This document shows positions 6,873 to 15,392 of a DNA stretch of 64,000 nt, one piece after another (the stretch's first letter is position 1; each line of letters opens with the position of its first letter). This DNA comes from an uncultured Pseudomonadota bacterium. GTDB taxonomy: Bacteria; Pseudomonadota; Alphaproteobacteria; Rs-D84. The notes below the pieces were generated by a model. The model saw only the letters and a list, made by a program, of their open reading frames with translations, ran no database searches and was not told where the DNA came from. The stretch spans positions 69,621 to 133,620 of the forward strand of contig CADBVV010000001.1 in the NCBI GenBank assembly GCA_902798205.1, written 5' to 3'. The position numbers were made by a program, and so were the translations under genes.

Positions 6873-7547
6873 TTATGAAATTAATTTTTTAATTACAAAA
6901 TCTGACAAAAACAATCCGAAAGCACCGGTCACAGTTATCATTGAACCAAATTCACGTCCACCATTTGGTTGTGGCGTGGCCTGTTCAACAGAATAAACAA
7001 CTGGAAAATCTTTTAATCTTTCATCACGCACCAAATGTCTTATTTTTGATGCCAATGGACATACTGTTGTTTTTGATATTTTATTGATTTTTATTTTTGA
7101 TATATCTGTTTTTCTTGCTGCACCCATGCTGGAAATAAATGGTATATTATTTTGTTGGCACCATTTATAAAGTGCCATTTTTGATTGCACACTGTCAATG
7201 GCATCAATAACAAAATCAGGTTTTATATCAAGATTTGTTTTATCATCAAAAAATATATTAAATGTATCAACCACAATGTTCGGATTTATATCATGAATCC
7301 TTGATTTTGCTATTTCAACCTTTGGTTTTCCAATAGTGGAATCCAACGCAAACAATTGACGATTTATATTTGATTCTTCGACATTGTCAAAATCAATTAA
7401 TATAATATGCCCCACCCCACTGCGTGCCAAGGCTTCGATTGCAAACGATCCAACCGCGCCACATCCAACAACCATAACCGAAGATTGTTGCAATTTTTTT
7501 ATGGCTTCGTTTCCCAACAGCAAAGAAATTCTATGCAATCTATCCAT
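6873..7547 (-). CDS. tcdA: tRNA threonylcarbamoyladenosine dehydratase (ThiF/MoeB/HesA-fold E1-like)
   Basis: The nucleotide-binding loop VVGCGAVGSFAIEALARSGVGHIILIDFDNVEESNINRQ is typical of TcdA/CsdL. Confidence 0.8.
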   Translation of the reverse strand: MDRLHRISLLLGNEAIKKLQQSSVMVVGCGAVGSFAIEALARSGVGHIILIDFDNVEESNINRQLFALDSTIGKPKVEIAKSRIHDINPNIVVDTFNIFFDDKTNLDIKPDFVIDAIDSVQSKMALYKWCQQNNIPFISSMGAARKTDISKIKINKISKTTVCPLASKIRHLVRDERLKDFPVVYSVEQATPQPNGGREFGSMITVTGAFGLFLSDFVIKKLIS

Positions 7548-8214
7548 TTTGCAAAACCTTTAAAGTATTTTCATATATAATTTCGCCTGCATTGTTTTCA
7601 GATTTTATATTCGATATTTTATCAACCATATCAGATAACACAATATTATTCTTGCCATCTGTTTCGACCAAAATTTTGTTTATTGGTGTGTTTTGTATAT
7701 ATTCTGGCACAACTTTATTAAAAGATATAAAAACATTACCGTTATTGATTAAAGTGTCCAATATTTCAACACTGCCATTAAAACCGTGCGCAACAATCGT
7801 TGGTAATTCAGATTTTTTATATTGTTTTAATATATGCAAGATTTTATCCCACGCGCCAACACAATGTAAAAATACAGACCGCTTTAGTTTTATCGCAATT
7901 TCAAATTGTTTTTGGAACACATCAATTTGTTTATCCATATCTGGTTTATATTTATCCAACCCTATTTCCCCAATCATAAAGGAATCATTTGATTTTAACA
8001 AATTTTCCAATCTTAGTTCAAAACCATCTTTTATATCTGCAACAAACCAAGGATGTACCCCAAATGCGCCATAAACATTTTTATCAACATTGGTTATATT
8101 TATCAAATTTTGCCATTCGGATTCACATGTTGCACAACAAACAGTCGCCACAACACCAGTTTGAACATTGTGTGATATATAATCTATATGCGAATGTGCA
8201 TCTATTATCTTCAT
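7540..8214 (-). CDS. TatD-family metal-dependent hydrolase/DNase
   Basis: N-terminal IDAHSHID metal-binding motif, HCV.. and ETDG-type motifs. It overlaps tcdA by 8 nt. Confidence 0.78.
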   Translation of the reverse strand: MKIIDAHSHIDYISHNVQTGVVATVCCATCESEWQNLINITNVDKNVYGAFGVHPWFVADIKDGFELRLENLLKSNDSFMIGEIGLDKYKPDMDKQIDVFQKQFEIAIKLKRSVFLHCVGAWDKILHILKQYKKSELPTIVAHGFNGSVEILDTLINNGNVFISFNKVVPEYIQNTPINKILVETDGKNNIVLSDMVDKISNIKSENNAGEIIYENTLKVLQNG

Positions 8215-8305: not shown

Positions 8306-8381
8306 GGATGCATAGCTCAGTTGGTAGAGCAACTGACTCTTAATCAGTGGGTCCAGGGTTCGAGTCCCTGTGCGTCCACCA
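8306..8381 (+). tRNA. tRNA-Lys (anticodon CUU), CCA encoded
   Basis: GGATGCATAGCTCAGTTGGTAGAGCAACTGACTCTTAATCAGTGGGTCCAGGGTTCGAGTCCCTGTGCGTCCACCA folds as a cloverleaf. The anticodon loop is CTCTTAA and the T-loop is GTTCGAGTC. Confidence 0.93.
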
Positions 8382-8389
8382 GGATAATT

Positions 8390-8418
8390 AACCACCGCAA
8401 GGTGGTTTTTGTTTTTTT
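8390..8418 (+). terminator. Rho-independent terminator after tRNA-Lys
   Basis: Stem aaccacc/ggtggtt with loop gcaa, followed by a long T-run. Confidence 0.65.
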
Positions 8419-8483
8419 GCAAAAAAAATCATAAACTGTATATTTTTTTTGATTTTAGGTTTTTTTTCATTATAATAGTAAAC

Positions 8484-9776
8484 ATGTCAAAAAAATTATT
8501 ATTATTTCTTATAGCCTTGGCTTTACCGATGGTTTCGGTTGCTGGGACGCAAAATAGCCCTAAAACAAATGTTGTTGTATCACCGTATGATGACGTGCAA
8601 AATGTTTTAGAAAAAATACCTTTCCCAGAAGATTTGTCTGCAAATATCAAGCAATTGTATTTGTCTGCTCAAATAGAGCGAAAAAAAGGCAATATCAGAG
8701 CGGCCATACGTTTTTACAGAAAAGTTCTGGACAAACGCCCAAGCTTCGTGCGCGCCCGTTTTGAATTGGCTTTGTGTTATATGGCATCAGATCGTTGGGA
8801 TCGTGCTGATTATTATTTACGCTCGGCAATGGCATCTGAAGGTTTACCAAACGATGTGAAACACGTTATGGAAGAATACAGAGCCTTGGTACGCAGAAAC
8901 AAACACTGGGATTTCTGGTTTGAGTTTGGTGATGTACCTAATGTGCGTTCAAGCATTGTTGATAACGATGAATGTATTGGTGGTACATGTGAAAAATTAA
9001 CAGAACTAAAAAACGTATCAGGTGTAAATCTTGCGGCTGGTGCTGATTACGAATTTAAATTGTCAGATAATTGGCGTTGGAAAAACGATGTTGCATTTGA
9101 AACAAATCTGTACAAGGAAAATAAATATAATGATTTAAGTCTTGCCGGTTCAACGGGCCCTCGCTATGTATGGGACGATGGGGACATCTGGTTTGCCGGG
9201 GTTGTAGGCCGCAGTTGGTACAGTCAAAAACCGCTTGGTTGGTCATACGGTGCTAAAATTGATGCCAATTATGATTTAACACGCAGATTATCATCTGGTT
9301 TGATTTTAATGGGCTTGAACAATTCGTACGATGAATATAATGATTTACTTGGTGGACAGACATATACTGCGGTACCACATTTTACGTATTATATTGATTC
9401 TACGAAATACATTGAATTGCTTGGTGAAGTGGGACGCGAAACCGCAAAGATGGATTTTCTTGCTAATTATAACTATGGTATCGGGTTAAGTTTTGGTACG
9501 GAAATGCCTTATGGATTCCTTGTATCTTTAGAACCTTACTTATATTGGGTAGATTATGATGCAGAACGTGAAATTGAAAAAAGCGATAGTACGCGTCAAA
9601 GAATTAAACAAAGAGATTTTATTCAAAAGTGTACTTTGTCTTTAATCAATACTAACATAGAATTGCTTGGTTTTATGCCAGTTTTCAAAGTTACTTATAT
9701 AAATAAAGAATCTAATGTACCAGCCCCAGCATATGATAAATGGGTATTTGGTATAGGCATAAAAAGAAAGTTTTAA
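8484..9776 (+). CDS. Outer-membrane protein with an N-terminal TPR-like region and a C-terminal beta-barrel, DUF560/Slam-like (surface lipoprotein assembly modulator, type XI secretion family)
   Basis: The start was moved to MSKKLLLFLIALALPMVSVAG, which carries a signal peptide. A TPR-like segment (AAIRFYRKVLDKRPSFVRARFELALCYMASDRWDRADYYLRSA) is followed by a strand-rich region ending in GIGIKRKF. The family assignment is from memory of DUF560 architecture only. Confidence 0.5.
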   Translation: MSKKLLLFLIALALPMVSVAGTQNSPKTNVVVSPYDDVQNVLEKIPFPEDLSANIKQLYLSAQIERKKGNIRAAIRFYRKVLDKRPSFVRARFELALCYMASDRWDRADYYLRSAMASEGLPNDVKHVMEEYRALVRRNKHWDFWFEFGDVPNVRSSIVDNDECIGGTCEKLTELKNVSGVNLAAGADYEFKLSDNWRWKNDVAFETNLYKENKYNDLSLAGSTGPRYVWDDGDIWFAGVVGRSWYSQKPLGWSYGAKIDANYDLTRRLSSGLILMGLNNSYDEYNDLLGGQTYTAVPHFTYYIDSTKYIELLGEVGRETAKMDFLANYNYGIGLSFGTEMPYGFLVSLEPYLYWVDYDAEREIEKSDSTRQRIKQRDFIQKCTLSLINTNIELLGFMPVFKVTYINKESNVPAPAYDKWVFGIGIKRKF

Positions 9777-9784
9777 GTTAAAGC

Positions 9785-9811
9785 AAAACCCGCCTAAAAC
9801 GGCGGGTTTTT
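9785..9811. terminator. Bidirectional rho-independent terminator between converging genes
   Basis: Stem cccgcc/ggcggg with loop taaaac, flanked by an A-run and a T-run. Confidence 0.7.
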
Positions 9812-9816
9812 ATTTA

Positions 9817-10212
9817 CCTTTTATTTTTTCAAATACTGCGTTGGGTTGTATGCCTTGGTTCCCTTACGAATTTCAAAATGCAATTGTGGTTGATCAACCT
9901 TGCCTGTTTTGCCGACACGACCAATTTGTGTTCCAACACCAACACGTGCACCACGTTTCACAGACATAGAATCAAGATGTGCATAAATTGTCATCCATCC
10001 ATCACTGTGTTGAATAATTATTAAATTACCCATGCCCTTGACTTCATTACCAGCGTATGCAACAACACCATTTTCTGCTGCTTTGACCGCCGCACCCAAC
10101 GGTGCAGAAATATTGATACCGTCATTAAACAAACCGTTATTTTTTGCACCATATACAGATAAAATCTTGCCCCGCAACGGCCACGAAAACTTTGAACTTG
10201 AACGTGCAACAA
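9817..10212. repeat. Direct repeat copy A (~396 bp) of the nlpD 3' end
   Basis: Aligns base for base with 14030..14425 (constant offset 4213). I counted about 14 mismatches by eye. Confidence 0.92.
9821..10212 (-). pseudogene. Detached M23 (LytM) peptidase domain, a duplicated 3' fragment of nlpD lacking the signal peptide and LysM domains
   Basis: The translation VARSSSKFSWPLRGKIL...HFEIRKGTKAYNPTQYLKK differs at only 2 residues from the last ~130 aa of the 14034..15392 product. The upstream sequence is unrelated to nlpD. Confidence 0.7.
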
Positions 10213-10310
10213 TGTTTATCAATTGTATATTCATTTGGTTTTGTAAATGCATCCGCCAAAATAATATTTGGCATAAATAACAATAATAAAAATGTAAGTA
10301 TGTGTTTCAT
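10213..10310 (-). pseudogene. 5' remnant of a second trypsin-like protease gene (signal peptide plus ~12 aa), joined out of frame to the M23 fragment
   Basis: The reading MKHILTFLLLLFMPNIILADAFTKPNEYTIDK parallels MKRLLTFLLLLVPNVVLADACTNPNEYTIDKR of the 11217..12122 protease. This frame is offset by 1 nt from the M23 frame and stops after ~52 codons. Confidence 0.6.
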
Positions 10311-11213
10311 CTAATAAGAACTTTCTGTGTATGAATAAAACAAATCTCTGTCGCTCGTCATTCCTCTTATTTTTGCCCCAGGAATTTTTGAAGATTTCCA
10401 TTTTTCTATATCTTTAATTTCTATAATTTTGCAACCAAACGCTGGGTTACAATCTTGTTTTTTCTTTGGAACATATTGATACATACCGTCTTTTATATCT
10501 TGATTTAATTGATTTCTCCATTGATGCCATTCCTGATAATTATATACAGATTTAAACACATCCAAAAAAACACTATTGCTAATATTATTTGGATCATCAG
10601 AATCAGATTCTATAGTCAACGACACTTCGTATTCGGCACGAATATTTGTTAAATGATCATCTATGGACACCGATAAATACGGGCTTCCAAAATCTTGAGT
10701 TGTTATTTTATATTCTTCAAAACCATCTGGATACAAACAAGTATGTTTTCGTTCGTCACGTAACATTTTATTTACTTCGTATCTACCATTGTTTTTATTT
10801 TTATATAATTTATGTCCATTACATTGTTCAGAATCCATAATCCCTTCGTCCAACCAATAATATACTTCTCTACCATTTTCATATATTTCATTTTTTATTG
10901 CACGACCAGATTCTGCACTTTTTTGTTCCATTAACCACATAAAGAAATCTTTGTAATCGTTAAAAGTTTTTTCTGCCAGATAGTTGTTGTATTTTACAAC
11001 CTTTTGCACATCTGTATAATCTTTGTAAGATTCCACCAAATCAGGGTCTATTTGCTTCATTCGTTCTTCGATAATAGGCAATTGTTGTTTCATTATTTCG
11101 CTGTATTCCTGTAAATATCCAAATGTAGAATCTTGTTTTACAGCATCATACTTATCACCAAAACAAAATGTTGGTATAATCATTAACAACAAAAATGCAA
11201 ATATTCGTTTCAT
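10311..11213 (-). CDS. Secreted hypothetical protein, family A paralogue 2 (300 aa)
   Basis: Signal peptide MKRIFAFLLLMIIPTFCFG. It shares blocks with the 12124..13071 product (KYNNYLAEKTFN, GIMDSEQCNG, HTCLYPDGFEEY, QDIKDGM, EIKDIEKWKS) and 4 conserved Cys. Confidence 0.8.
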   Translation of the reverse strand: MKRIFAFLLLMIIPTFCFGDKYDAVKQDSTFGYLQEYSEIMKQQLPIIEERMKQIDPDLVESYKDYTDVQKVVKYNNYLAEKTFNDYKDFFMWLMEQKSAESGRAIKNEIYENGREVYYWLDEGIMDSEQCNGHKLYKNKNNGRYEVNKMLRDERKHTCLYPDGFEEYKITTQDFGSPYLSVSIDDHLTNIRAEYEVSLTIESDSDDPNNISNSVFLDVFKSVYNYQEWHQWRNQLNQDIKDGMYQYVPKKKQDCNPAFGCKIIEIKDIEKWKSSKIPGAKIRGMTSDRDLFYSYTESSY

Positions 11214-11216
11214 TGT

Positions 11217-12122
11217 TTATTTTAAATAATTTATAGCACCACCTATTCTAGCATGCACATTTCCGCCTATACCAGCACCACCTCTTGTTACAATACCCAT
11301 CATATTACCTTCATCATCAAAAACACCACCACCAGAGTTTCCACCCCATCCTCTGCAATCTTGTAAACCACCCGTACTAGCAATCTTACAATAAGATACT
11401 TTTAATATTTTATCAGCAAAAATGCTTTTATAATAATTTGTTTCCTGCTCTAACAAATATTTTAAAAAACCAATTGATGCTTCATGAATGAACATTATAC
11501 CATCTTCTTCTATTTCGTATTTGGGCTGTTTCAGATTGTTTTTTTGTAAATAATTAATATATTTTTGTTTAATTTCTTTTATTTCTTGATCACTCATTAT
11601 CTTTAAAGCTCCATATCCGATTAACCTGGCATCATAAGTACGATTATAAGAATAATTTATCAAAGGAATTTTTATATATATACGTTTATTATTTGTAATA
11701 TTTGTAGAAAGAATATTTTTTTGAATATTATCGATAGAATAAATAGCCCAATCACCAGTGACATATTCATTAAGAGATACATCATAATCACCGATTTTTT
11801 TATATCTACCTGTAATTATATCACCATTTTGCGTGATAAATCTTAAATTATCGCCATAAACATTATCTTGATTTACATCCGTACAATGTTTGGCAGTATA
11901 AATACTTAATTCGTCATTTTGCTCTAAAATTACAGTCCCTGTACAATAAATCACATCTTCATTGTCCATTATTCCAACTACAGAAACATATGGTTTTTCT
12001 TTCTTTTGTTCTTCTGTAACATAACAACGTTTATCAATTGTGTATTCATTTGGGTTTGTACACGCATCCGCCAAAACAACATTTGGAACAAGTAACAACA
12101 AAAAAGTCAGTAATCTTTTCAT
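11217..12122 (-). CDS. Secreted trypsin-like (S1/chymotrypsin-fold) serine protease
   Basis: Signal peptide MKRLLTFLLLLVPNVVLA. The candidate triad is His in YTAKHC, Asp in GDWAIY and Ser in GWGGNSGGGVF. An unusually long insert separates the Asp and Ser regions. Confidence 0.72.
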   Translation of the reverse strand: MKRLLTFLLLLVPNVVLADACTNPNEYTIDKRCYVTEEQKKEKPYVSVVGIMDNEDVIYCTGTVILEQNDELSIYTAKHCTDVNQDNVYGDNLRFITQNGDIITGRYKKIGDYDVSLNEYVTGDWAIYSIDNIQKNILSTNITNNKRIYIKIPLINYSYNRTYDARLIGYGALKIMSDQEIKEIKQKYINYLQKNNLKQPKYEIEEDGIMFIHEASIGFLKYLLEQETNYYKSIFADKILKVSYCKIASTGGLQDCRGWGGNSGGGVFDDEGNMMGIVTRGGAGIGGNVHARIGGAINYLK

Positions 12123-12123
12123 T

Positions 12124-13071
12124 TTAATCGATGTTTTCTTCTAATTCATGATGAATTGTATGTCCTGTTGCCAGCTCTTTAACTTTATAGTCTGCCCCCC
12201 AATTACCAGAACGCCATTTTGACATATCTTTAATCTCTGTAAATCGGCAACGGCCATCTAAACAATATCCGTCTTCTTTATATTCTCTCATTCCGTCTTT
12301 TATATCTTGTTGCCAATTGTTTCTTTCTGTTTGGTGTTCGTAATAAGTTGTTTCTTGTGATGAAATATCGAGATAAAAAGCACTTGTTTGGTTTTTAGAA
12401 TCATCCAAATAAGATTCTTTATTTAAAGATATCTTGTATGTTTTATGTGTGTTATTTGCAACAGAATCAATACTTAACAATAATATTTTTGTATTATTAT
12501 GATTTGCACCAGCATTTTCAATTACCAGAGTATAATCTTCAAAACCATCTGGGTAAAGGCAGGTGTGATCACGTTGGTCTTTCAATTGTTTTTCTACTTC
12601 TTCACGGCTATAATCTTTGGCTTTATATGTTCCACCATTACATTGATCGCTGTCCATTATCCCTGCATCTAACCAAATAAAACTTTCTTTGGTAAGATTT
12701 AGATTGCTTCCATCACCATAATTTTTCGTGCGTACTGCTCTATTAGTTTCATGGCCATGTCTATATAAATCTGCTATGAAACGATCTTTATATTCATTAA
12801 ATGTTTTTTCAGCCAAATAATTATTATATTTTACTATTTTTTGAAAAACCGTATCGTCTTTTGATGATCGAACCAATTTAGCACCTGTTCCAAGTGGGTC
12901 ATTAGCTAAACTAGATATTCTGGCTTCTATTATTGGTAATGATTGTTTCATAATATTGTCATATTCTTGAACACCAGAAAAAACAGGATCTTGTTTCATC
13001 TCGTCATAGTTCTTTGCAAAACAAGGTAATGATATGCTTAGCAATAATAAAAATGCATATGCTCGGTTCAT
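12124..13071 (-). CDS. Secreted hypothetical protein, family A paralogue 1 (315 aa)
   Basis: Signal peptide MNRAYAFLLLLSISLPCFA. It is a paralogue of the 10311..11213 product. Its start overlaps the upstream stop by 1 nt (TAATG). Confidence 0.8.
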   Translation of the reverse strand: MNRAYAFLLLLSISLPCFAKNYDEMKQDPVFSGVQEYDNIMKQSLPIIEARISSLANDPLGTGAKLVRSSKDDTVFQKIVKYNNYLAEKTFNEYKDRFIADLYRHGHETNRAVRTKNYGDGSNLNLTKESFIWLDAGIMDSDQCNGGTYKAKDYSREEVEKQLKDQRDHTCLYPDGFEDYTLVIENAGANHNNTKILLLSIDSVANNTHKTYKISLNKESYLDDSKNQTSAFYLDISSQETTYYEHQTERNNWQQDIKDGMREYKEDGYCLDGRCRFTEIKDMSKWRSGNWGADYKVKELATGHTIHHELEENID

Positions 13072-14021
13072 TATTGCAAAACCTCTTCACAGCGGCCGGC
13101 TTGTTCCATCAATTTTTTAGTTAATGTAATAAGTGATATATTTAAACCTGTTTCAACGGCACCGGTTGCAACATTTGCACCAGCCATTACATTGGCTGTT
13201 GTATTTAACGCATGTTCTTTTTTCTTTTCTTCTTCGGTTAATCTAACTTTATTAGCCGCATCCATATATTTATCAGAATTCGCCGCCGCACTGGTTCCGA
13301 CCCCAACAACACCAATCGCAGTCCCCGCAATTGATGTACCCATTACACCCTTCATTCGTTTTTCGATTTTTTCAATATCTTTTATATTAATTTGATTACA
13401 CCATGTACGAACATTGCTTAATTTTTTAACAACAGTGTGTTGATTTGGGTTGATACCGGCCTTTCTTAATTCATTTTCCATATCCGGTATTGATTTCACA
13501 ATTTCATTACATGCAGATATGTGTTGAACCAATTCTGATTGATTTGTGTTTAACCCCGACATAATGGCAGATGCCAGATTAGTTCCGATTGTTCCGGCCA
13601 TTAAACCTGTACGCCAATTACCCAGTTTTTTTGATTTATCTATCTTTTGTTGTAATTCGGCAATTTGCGCCATTGGTTGTAAAACGTTCATTAAAAACTG
13701 TTCATCACTCATTGCGTTTACGCCTTCGGCGCTGCAACCACCAGATGCACACATTTTAGCAATTAATTCTTCGATTTCTTGTTCTTCTTGGGACTTCTTT
13801 ATTCCGGCAACCAATGCACCGCCGGCCGCAACCGTCCCAACCGCAGTTACCGCCGTATTCGCCTTTGATATATTGGCGACACGCCCTATTTCGTCAGAAA
13901 TTCCAGAACATGCAATACGTGTTGCTTCAAAAACTTGTTCTGCATTTTTTACAACATCAATATCATCTGCAGATGCCATAAATGGCATAAAAATCAGAAT
14001 CATTGTCAATATTCGTTTCAT
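13071..14021 (-). CDS. Secreted protein with four Gly/Ala-rich glycine-zipper-like hydrophobic segments (316 aa)
   Basis: Signal peptide MKRILTMILIFMPFMASA. The four segments are TAVTAVGTVAAGGALVAGI, GLMAGTIGTNLASAIMSGL, GVMGTSIAGTAIGVVGVGTSAAA and NVMAGANVATGAVETGL, separated by charged helical stretches. Several Cys are present. Confidence 0.8.
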   Translation of the reverse strand: MKRILTMILIFMPFMASADDIDVVKNAEQVFEATRIACSGISDEIGRVANISKANTAVTAVGTVAAGGALVAGIKKSQEEQEIEELIAKMCASGGCSAEGVNAMSDEQFLMNVLQPMAQIAELQQKIDKSKKLGNWRTGLMAGTIGTNLASAIMSGLNTNQSELVQHISACNEIVKSIPDMENELRKAGINPNQHTVVKKLSNVRTWCNQINIKDIEKIEKRMKGVMGTSIAGTAIGVVGVGTSAAANSDKYMDAANKVRLTEEEKKKEHALNTTANVMAGANVATGAVETGLNISLITLTKKLMEQAGRCEEVLQ

Positions 14022-14029
14022 TTCTAAAG

Positions 14030-14425
14030 CCTTTTATTTTTTCAAATACTGCGTTGGGTTGTATGCCTTGGTTCCCTTGCGAATTTCAAAGTGCAATTGT
14101 GGTTGATCAACTTTGCCTGTTTTGCCGACACGACCAATTTGTGTTCCAACACCAACGCGTGCACCACGTTTCACAGACATAGAATCAAGATGTGCATAAA
14201 TTGTCATCCATCCATCACTGTGTTGAATAATTATTAAATTACCCATGCCTTTGACTTCATTACCGGCATATGCAACAACACCATTTTCCGCTGCTTTGAC
14301 CGCGGCACCAAACGGTGCAGAAATATTGATACCATCATTAAACAAACCATTATTTTTTGCACCATATGCAGATAAAATCTTGCCCCGCAACGGCCACGAA
14401 AACTTTGAACTTGAACGCGCAACAA
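14030..14425. repeat. Direct repeat copy B (~396 bp), the 3' end of intact nlpD
   Basis: See copy A at 9817..10212. Confidence 0.92.
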
Positions 14426-15392
14426 CCTTTGGTAATTGTTGTTTTGGGTTTGAAGATATCTTTTGTTTTTCTGTATTTTTCGCGACAGTTTTTGTATCCG
14501 CTGGCTTTGCGGTCGTTTTGTTTTCCGCTGTGTTTTTCGCAGGTGTAATTTTTACAACTGTTGTTTTCTCAGTTTTTATTTCCGACACAGACGCTGTTTT
14601 AACATTGTTTAACTTTGGCACTTTGATTTTTTGGCCAACAGACAAAACAAACGGACTGGATATTTTATTCATAACCGCCAAATCATTAACTGGTATTTCA
14701 TATTGACGCGACAAAGAATACAATGTATCGCCCTTTTGCACCGTGATTTCTTGCAAATCTACACGTTTGGTCCCTGTTGGTTTTATTGTTTCTTTGGCCA
14801 CAACTTTTTCTTTGGCAATAACATTTGGCACTTCCTGTTTTACAGTTGCACTTCGTTTTGTTGTTAATTTTTGACCGATCGATAAAGTATACGGTTCGTG
14901 TAAATTATTTACATCGGCAAATTCAGAAACCGTCATACCGTTTTTACGTGCCAACGAATAAACAGTGTCCCCTTTTGCAACAATTATAACATCACCACCG
15001 GCTGGTTCTTTCTTTGGTGCCGGTGTATCAATAATTGTATTTCCGCCATACATTGGAACAATTAAATAATCTTGTTCTGTTTGTTGTTCTGTGATTTTTG
15101 TTTCTTCGTTTTCTGGGACCAAAACGTAATCATCAACACTGGCATATAAAACATAATCATTTATATTTGACGAACCGTATAATTCAGGCGAAGCATACAC
15201 ACCATAATCAGTCACCGCAGAATTATAGATTTCAGGCTGGGTATTCGGATCCGCCAACAATGCCGGATATCTGTCTTCGATAAACATACCAATACTATCA
15301 GGAATAGAAGCAATTTTTGGTTGCAAATCACATGCGCCCAAGACAAGCGCACACAAAACAGACACTTTGAAAAAAGTTTTATACATTCTCAC
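14034..15392 (-). CDS. nlpD: LysM-domain M23 murein hydrolase activator lipoprotein (NlpD-like)
   Basis: Lipobox VLGAC, two LysM repeats (GDTVYSLARKNGMTVSEF and GDTLYSLSRQYEIPVNDL), a Thr/Lys-rich linker and a C-terminal M23 domain (HSDGWMTIYAHL, HFEIRK). Confidence 0.85.
   Translation of the reverse strand: MRMYKTFFKVSVLCALVLGACDLQPKIASIPDSIGMFIEDRYPALLADPNTQPEIYNSAVTDYGVYASPELYGSSNINDYVLYASVDDYVLVPENEETKITEQQTEQDYLIVPMYGGNTIIDTPAPKKEPAGGDVIIVAKGDTVYSLARKNGMTVSEFADVNNLHEPYTLSIGQKLTTKRSATVKQEVPNVIAKEKVVAKETIKPTGTKRVDLQEITVQKGDTLYSLSRQYEIPVNDLAVMNKISSPFVLSVGQKIKVPKLNNVKTASVSEIKTEKTTVVKITPAKNTAENKTTAKPADTKTVAKNTEKQKISSNPKQQLPKVVARSSSKFSWPLRGKILSAYGAKNNGLFNDGINISAPFGAAVKAAENGVVAYAGNEVKGMGNLIIIQHSDGWMTIYAHLDSMSVKRGARVGVGTQIGRVGKTGKVDQPQLHFEIRKGTKAYNPTQYLKK

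Follow-up and report, generated by a model that had tools for sequence, protein, structure and literature searches.

The window analysed here, a stretch of 64,000 nucleotides (nt), was assigned by nlpD-seeded scans to Candidatus Enterousia from the rumen. These uncultured alphaproteobacteria of the rumen and gut (order Rs-D84) have genomes mostly smaller than 1 Mb (PMC12306168). The 3' end of the cell-division gene nlpD is present twice in the window, as a direct repeat that brackets a cassette of genes for secreted proteins. Read along the minus strand, the 4213-bp unit consists of nlpD, a 12-nt gap, the cassette genes g1, g2, g3 and g4, a 34-codon fragment resembling g3 (g3b), and the second copy of the nlpD end (to 9821), followed by a hairpin. 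The positions of all features are listed in Table 1.

The gene order kept in Enterousia is lolA, tatB, tatC, nlpD, a variable island, tRNA-Lys(ctt), an optional Slam gene, tatD, thiF, an outer-membrane protein gene and an autotransporter gene. The lolA-tatB-tatC-nlpD synteny is found in at least 150 Enterousia loci, and in the window the order upstream of nlpD is intact. Loci and contigs of relatives as well as Logan unitigs compared with the window are designated by L numbers. The intact NlpD protein of 452 amino acids has the domain composition of the NlpD/LytM type, with two LysM domains (Pfam, E 4e-29) and one Peptidase_M23 domain (E 4e-30). The detached copy matches Peptidase_M23 alone (E 2e-31).

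Table 1. Features of the nlpD locus (window coordinates).
Feature	Position	Strand	Description
Repeat copy B	14030..14425	-	Last 130 nlpD codons with the stop codon and the following 4 nt; contiguous with the remainder of the gene
Repeat copy A	9817..10212	-	Detached M23-domain end of nlpD, no signal peptide; a 143-aa open reading frame (ORF) is readable at 9821-10252
Intact nlpD	14034..15392	-	Signal peptide, two LysM, variable linker, M23; first gene of the operon; from Pfam and synteny
g1	13071..14021	-	316 aa, secreted, predicted all-helical, four conserved Gly/Ala-rich segments; start 12 nt past the nlpD stop
g2	12124..13071	-	315 aa, secreted, undescribed family; start overlaps the g1 stop
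g3	11217..12122	-	301 aa, secreted, putative trypsin-like (S1) serine protease, from motifs and sub-threshold Pfam matches
g4	10311..11213	-	300 aa, paralogue of g2 (45% identity); from tblastn and alignment
Truncated g3-like gene (g3b)	10310-10209	-	First 34 codons: signal peptide and CTxPxEYTIDKxC motif; joined out of frame to nlpD codon ~320
Crossover microhomology	10208..10212	.	AACAA on the plus strand, TTGTT in gene orientation; from a three-way alignment
tRNA-Lys(ctt) and Slam gene	8306..9776	+	tRNA 8306-8381 (ARAGORN); Slam outer-membrane protein gene 8484-9776 (Pfam SlipAM)
Bidirectional hairpin terminator	9785..9811	.	Between the convergent Slam and displaced nlpD end; scored on both strands

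The two copies align without gaps over 396 nt at a constant offset of 4213, with exactly 14 mismatches (96.5% identity). Thirteen of these mismatches are located at third codon positions of the minus-strand nlpD frame. Amino acid replacements result from only two of the 14: V/A at 10155 and L/F at 10097. According to the Nei-Gojobori method the differences comprise 12 synonymous and 2 non-synonymous changes, corresponding to a synonymous divergence (dS) of 0.149, a non-synonymous divergence (dN) of 0.0067 and a dN/dS ratio of 0.045. Under neutrality the binomial probability of at most two non-synonymous changes among 14 is 1.2e-6. An earlier reading of the window, made from its letters without database searches (the sequence-only reading), had arrived at a gap-free repeat with the same offset, about 14 mismatches and two amino acid differences. 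It had also identified copy B as the 3' end of the intact gene and copy A as a detached M23 domain, with a divergence mainly under purifying selection. The exact alignment, the Pfam matches and the dN/dS ratio agree with it on all these points. The homology extends to 4 nt past the nlpD stop codon on one side and to a joint with microhomology on the other, where the similarity collapses from 10213/14426 onwards.

The sequence-only reading had named read-level evidence for an assembly duplication of one copy as a refutation. The assembly might also be a chimera of two co-occurring strains with and without the cassette, or of a chromosome and a free circle. All long contigs are indeed metagenome assemblies with possibly overlapping reads, and unitigs built with k=31 break at the repeat. 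However, two ENA contigs (ERZ27280571 k141_8580, 203 kb, and ERZ28614831 STEW19-1_SAMEA5383984 scaffold_168, 100 kb) match the window at 100% identity throughout this region and agree with the Logan unitigs. The longest identical run between the copies is 92 nt, below the k=141 of one assembly. Each 141-mer therefore holds a copy-specific base, and the path through either copy is phased by reads from flank to flank. The Logan k=31 unitigs (run ERR3201377, source sample SAMEA5383984) end at positions 14388, 10175, 14059 and 9846. Each end lies exactly k-1 = 30 nt beyond the last copy-specific base, which matches the prediction for a true two-copy repeat. Furthermore, the junction of the g3 fragment with the displaced nlpD end is a novel adjacency, which is crossed by the Logan unitig L155 including the A-specific base 10205. 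Since the exact overlap at this joint is merely 5 nt, a chimera is very unlikely and in our view the least probable of the explanations discussed here. All available contigs show the integrated form only.

While the two copies are 96.5% identical to each other, either of them is 89.8% identical to L001, the nearest other species. Polarization of the differences on L001 resulted in about 7 changes per branch, roughly 6 synonymous and 1 non-synonymous each. A further comparison was provided by L156, a contig from another sample (ERZ914859) that carries nlpD, g1 and g2 of another strain. At the 12 scorable sites the nlpD of L156 has the A state four times and the B state eight times, in addition to 6 private changes, and the comparison of the three sequences is star-like. 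Because L156 mixes the states of both copies, the differences are alleles segregating in one species. As judged from these alignments, copies A and B are most likely two alleles from a single species. This supports the view of the sequence-only reading that the copies are orthologous nlpD segments from two related genomes rather than the outcome of decay in place, given the low dN/dS ratio, the even distribution of changes over the branches and the mosaic pattern of L156.

L156 is identical to the window from 14152 to 12778 (1375 nt, through g1 into g2) except for a 23-nt deletion in nlpD. There are 10 differences between 14153 and 14418, and many more in the linker. This pattern marks a recombination breakpoint inside the 3' region of nlpD. 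The cassettes are identical up to this breakpoint, which shows that a recent transfer of the cassette between strains took place and that the M23-coding end acted as the homology arm on the upstream side. The 23-nt deletion of L156 (which matches window positions 12778-14543) is located at approximately 14107-14129 in the M23-coding part and would shift the frame; it is either real or an error of an old scaffold.

An old duplication in place, with both copies under selection and copy A encoding a functional, free-standing M23 (degenerate LytM) protein of 143 residues, would also account for the low dN/dS ratio. The ORF of copy A is intact, with an ATG at 10252, and spans the whole M23 domain without stop codon or frameshift. 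However, proteins of the NlpD type function outside the cytoplasm, and copy A encodes neither a signal peptide nor a lipobox. The signal-peptide fragment ahead of it is read in a different frame, no relative has such a gene, and the A states shared with L156 fit an allelic origin. Without an export signal and without a counterpart in relatives, a functional free-standing protein is unlikely, and we regard this duplication in place as distinctly improbable. Copy A is very probably a non-functional relic. A simple tandem duplication was rejected, as it would place g1 rather than the Slam hairpin after copy A.

The end of the repeat inside nlpD is the actual rearrangement joint. Read in the direction of the genes, the hybrid sequence is of g3 type as far as ...GATAAACATTGTT and corresponds to nlpD from TTGTTGCACG... 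onwards. The g3b fragment shares 86% nucleotide identity with g3 at 12023-12105, and its N-terminal motif is conserved in the relatives of g3. The break directly follows the conserved CTxPxEYTIDKRC motif of the g3 family. The TTGTT sequence at the joint is part of a patchy match between g3 and nlpD (15 of 21 positions). Among the 1339 possible registers of the g3 21-mer along nlpD this register is the single best (the runner-up matches at 13 of 21 positions), which explains the position of the joint at the start of the M23 domain. We interpret this joint as the signature of microhomology-guided illegitimate recombination. The truncated g3-like gene had been overlooked by the earlier reading. 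A fusion of the g3 signal peptide to the M23 domain, either in frame or by programmed frameshifting, was discarded: the frames differ and no slippery site was seen, although no formal test was made. The other end of the repeat is no rearrangement joint. The order nlpD-AAGG-g1 is the native one, found unchanged in L156 and in similar form in L162, L157, L010 and others.

Downstream, copy A adjoins the flank with tRNA-Lys and Slam, with no cassette in between. Together, copy A and this flank look like the fossil of a cassette-free allele. The hairpin begins 8 nt past the Slam stop codon. A similar hairpin (AAAACCGCC...GGCGGTTTT) follows the Slam stop of L002 at a distance of 10 nt. In L001 and L002 no hairpin separates nlpD from the tRNA promoter, which follows immediately. 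For this reason the hairpin is more likely the terminator of Slam, probably now serving both convergent transcripts, than the original nlpD terminator for which the sequence-only reading had taken it.

From 8306 to 9811 the window contains promoter, tRNA-Lys, terminator, Slam and hairpin in the same order as L002, but the orientation of the unit with respect to nlpD and tatD is opposite to that in every relative carrying it (e.g. L002 and L019). No convincing inverted repeats were found flanking this unit. One may speculate that the inverted flank removed the colinear homology for an ordinary double crossover and thereby favoured an illegitimate resolution. The adjacent TatD (7540-8214) is 55-67% identical to its counterparts in relatives whose ThiF, TatC and LolA reach 80-94%, which reflects either fast evolution or replacement by recombination.

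To place the arrangement in context, the region downstream of nlpD was compared among relatives. In L001, the closest relative (NlpD identity 90%), nlpD, tRNA-Lys and tatD are directly consecutive, and L002 and L019 have the cassette-free order nlpD, tRNA-Lys, Slam and tatD. An empty site after nlpD is also present in L015. Homologues of g1-g4 were found downstream of nlpD in 15 of the 111 loci with at least 1.5 kb of sequence on this side, and they usually start approximately 10-25 nt past the nlpD stop codon. The sequence-only reading had proposed a search for such empty sites and had named a universally present cassette with no empty site as the pattern that would speak against it. With empty sites in four loci and a patchy cassette, this pattern is not what the relatives show.

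Outside the window's own genome, none of the 153 loci that the nlpD-seeded scans yielded showed a second nlpD 3' end, and this holds for the 15 loci with a cassette as well. Detached M23 ends suspected in L139-L141 turned out to be nlpD genes with a divergent linker that are cut at the contig end. The duplication is therefore a rare by-product and not the usual mode of insertion. The stretch after nlpD is a variable island, in which the cassette is accessory and the duplication exceptional.

Two further observations concern the same site. In L022 (11521-11690) a 53-residue C-terminal remnant of g1, 85% identical, is located 8 nt past the nlpD stop codon; here a different species bears a further scar of illegitimate deletion at this site. 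In L001 (11389-11700) the final ~20 nt of the tRNA (GTCCCTGTGCGTCCACCAG) occur again about 190 nt past tRNA-Lys, ahead of another hairpin. This partial copy looks like an att-type scar of an integrative element lost from the same hot spot.

For the origin of the repeat we propose one rare event in which two strains of the same Candidatus Enterousia species recombined, by homology-facilitated illegitimate recombination (HFIR) of linear donor DNA, and would give this proposal an even chance of being correct. The recipient would have had an empty site, with nlpD directly followed by the inverted tRNA-Lys/Slam unit, and the donor an nlpD followed by the co-transcribed island g1-g2-g3-g4-g3b. A homologous crossover at some point upstream of nlpD codon ~320 would have linked linear donor DNA to the recipient chromosome. 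At its other end the donor DNA would have been broken within g3b, and an illegitimate joint to nlpD of the recipient would have formed where the microhomology was best (TTGTT, within the 15/21 patch). The product would carry an intact, donor-type nlpD (copy B), with four genes for secreted proteins under the nlpD promoter. What had been the M23-coding end of the recipient gene would be left behind these genes as copy A, which most likely represents the displaced allele of the resident strain. In line with this mechanism, the joint occurs at a short microhomology without extended homology. The insert has no counterpart in the recipient arrangement, as seen from the flank of copy A and the empty sites of the relatives.

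The sequence-only reading had instead favoured a Campbell-type integration. In this case a circle of 4213 bp, comprising the M23 end of nlpD, g1-g4 and the N-terminus of g3b, would have been closed by microhomology-mediated excision or by circularization of donor DNA, and integrated by one crossover within the 396 nt of the recipient nlpD. The geometry fits: the insert lies between two direct copies of the homology segment (396 nt, with 14 mismatches at an offset of 4213), and together with one of them it is a circular permutation with one novel joint. A crossover inside the 3' region of nlpD is documented in L156, and the copy-specific derived changes are about evenly split between the copies. 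However, the circle needs two rare steps in addition to the transfer or survival of non-replicating DNA, and its 4.2 kb encode no replication or recombinase function. No circle-specific evidence was found. A linear donor fits equally well with fewer steps. Integration of a circle thus explains the product, but we consider it possible rather than probable, and prefer HFIR because it requires a single event and no circular, non-replicating intermediate.

Several points weigh against HFIR of linear DNA. A Campbell-type circle yields an identical end product. No same-species parental genome was found, neither a strain with an empty site nor a donor with a full g3b: one metagenome scan and one genome scan gave best nlpD identities of 78% and 90%. 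Look-ups with the exact sequences of nlpD, the 143-aa ORF, TatC, ThiF and Slam led to nothing but the same genome (ENA, Logan) and contigs that end short of the island. An identical TatC is present on contigs of ERZ914854, SAMEA5383881 and ERZ27280228. We infer the roles of donor and recipient, the upstream crossover, the linearity of the donor DNA and its route of uptake. To our knowledge, neither competence nor another route of DNA uptake has been described for Enterousia. The AAGG that follows both stop codons resembles the ribosome-binding site of g1, which suggests that copy A may once have preceded g1 as well. Finally, the three assemblies (two from ENA, one from Logan) may share reads, so that their independence between samples is unproven.

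A third possibility is that an element carrying a replacement 3' end integrated site-specifically into the corresponding part of nlpD, by means of a recombinase that was lost or acted in trans. Such a recombinase could have come, for example, from an island as in L172 (7599-18738; also in L173). This island of ~11 kb is inserted between aspS and pagL/udg and bounded by a small serine recombinase, a resolvase of 186 residues, and a large serine recombinase of 564 residues. It carries homologues of g1 (80% amino acid identity) and g2 (96.5%) together with a further g2-like gene, which indicates that the cassette genes also travel on bona fide mobile elements. These close homologues had escaped the earlier reading. 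The island also contains a protein with subtilisin-like motifs (identified by eye), an NPPY-motif protein (possibly a methyltransferase) and an RloB/AAA_21 pair.

The geometry of the locus would suit such an integration. The 3' end is duplicated and the target frame intact, with a complete NlpD and a displaced end that differs mostly by synonymous changes, as described for icd and icdC (PMC13626634). However, no recombinase gene was found in the insert or within ~10 kb in the Pfam annotation of all called genes, which agrees with the lack of integrase and transposase noted by the sequence-only reading. The end of the element is a gene truncated out of frame at a conserved motif and is not att-like. 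The site was not reused in any of the 153 loci, and the L172 island contains no nlpD fragment. We therefore attach little weight to site-specific integration and retain HFIR as the preferred explanation.

The four complete cassette genes all encode signal peptides. A family of 31-nt sequences (71-81% identity to the reference copy) is found at 10281-10311, 11184-11214, 12093-12123, 13042-13072 and 13992-14022. It is located at the start of every cassette gene, where it encodes the shared signal peptide MKR(I/L)..FLLL, and could be a substrate for shuffling within the cassette. Because a scan of the minus strand of the 4213-bp unit revealed no convincing terminator-like hairpin, the cassette is most likely transcribed from the nlpD promoter, with predicted termination at 9785-9811. 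Family and fold searches with the cassette proteins gave no match to recombinases or to known toxin or immunity families.

The lead gene g1 is conserved in the island and directly follows nlpD in many species. Its 706 homologues are all unnamed and occur in Enterousia-like contigs. Sequence searches in Pfam, NCBIfam, PADLOC, PHROGs and the PDB yielded no match that would indicate a function. The AlphaFold2 model is all-helical with low confidence (predicted local distance difference test score, pLDDT, of 52) and was too poor for a fold search. For g2, on the other hand, the model is confident (pLDDT 79, predicted template modelling score 0.75). A Foldseek search of the PDB with this predicted structure gave no match (best E 0.46). 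The family of g2 and g4 has only 13 homologues among 5.8 billion proteins.

The g3 protein scored 22.2 bits for Trypsin_2 in Pfam (gathering cut-off 27.6 bits), and the match to Trypsin is also below threshold. The motifs TAxHC, D and GxSG are conserved in 20 members of the family. From these motifs and the sub-threshold matches we classify g3 as a putative S1-type serine protease. The module of g4 and the g3 fragment is a diverged paralogue of the g2-g3 module at a spacing of ~1815 nt. The cassette proteins are secreted and patchily distributed, and their genes are rapidly reshuffled and leave relics such as the g1 remnant in L022, which would be consistent with genes for competition or for contacts with hosts or partners.

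As evidence at the sequence level, the scar implies that gut alphaproteobacteria with reduced genomes (<1 Mb; PMC12306168) still exchange accessory genes between strains, that they do so without mobile-element enzymes at the site, and that the region downstream of nlpD is a hot spot of this exchange. The stranded copy A preserves the former empty-site allele within the same genome, which is rarely seen. We predict that RecA-mediated recombination between the 396-nt copies can excise the cassette precisely and restore a single, hybrid nlpD. The cassette is perhaps the more useful lead. It combines, in a probably co-transcribed set, a conserved Gly/Ala-rich helical protein, S1-like proteases and a family with a confidently predicted fold unmatched in the PDB. 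Its patchiness, its rapid reshuffling and its probable dependence on the nlpD promoter are traits expected of genes for competition or host/partner contact.

A broader and more doubtful idea, which we put forward tentatively, is that the M23-coding end of nlpD serves as a standing homology handle for integrase-less mobile cassettes. These cassettes (g1, trypsin-like proteases and g2/g4 with their unmatched predicted fold) would be swapped across strains and species and occasionally ride on serine-recombinase islands. The duplicated end would then be an intermediate caught in the act, and the cassette an undescribed, secreted, protease-based system of antagonism or host interaction in genomes below 1 Mb.

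The arrangement can be compared with several known systems. In the effector-immunity loci of Rhs, contact-dependent inhibition and type VI secretion systems, a conserved upstream segment likewise acts as homology handle, the resident 3' part is pushed downstream as an orphan, and the loci are hypervariable between strains (PMC5361080). In contrast to these loci, the handle in the window is a housekeeping cell-division gene and not a toxin gene, and there is one displaced fragment and no array. The displacement of a toxin C-terminus that defines polymorphic toxins is not seen here: the handle is the M23 domain of nlpD, and the cassette proteins belong to no toxin or immunity family that was searched.

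The e14 prophage at icd of E. coli K-12, which left an intact icd and the pseudogene icdC, is similar in other respects (PMC13626634, which cites Hill et al. 1989). There, too, an essential-type gene is kept intact by the element's own 3' end and the original end is left downstream, the fragment differs mainly by conservative or synonymous changes, and excision makes a chimeric gene. Unlike the scar in the window, however, e14 is a prophage that encodes a site-specific recombinase of its own and has a defined att site. The scar has no recombinase, its joint is a truncated gene, and the arrangement is non-recurrent. Campbell-type insertion-duplication shares with the window the direct repeats that flank the insert, and the insert can be lost by recombination between them. 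It differs in that no plasmid or circle is known here, that the presumed circle would itself need an illegitimate joint, and that the repeats are 3.5% diverged.

A further correspondence is with HFIR. According to the work cited in PMC5361080, this process was described in the transformation of Acinetobacter, Streptococcus pneumoniae and Pseudomonas stutzeri, and PMC3240628 reports its experimental demonstration in conjugating E. coli. For type VI secretion clusters of Vibrio cholerae it has been proposed to cause an analogous displacement of effector genes (PMC5361080). As in these cases, one end of the incoming DNA is anchored by homology and the other is joined at a short microhomology, DNA without a counterpart in the recipient is trapped, and a gene is truncated at the joint. 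The event in the window differs in that it is deduced from sequence, and in that the joint lies inside the anchor gene of the recipient, where it led to the duplication of a 396-nt end and not to a loss of recipient DNA. The repeat of the nlpD end is a real scar and adds a further case to an already known kind of recombination scar.

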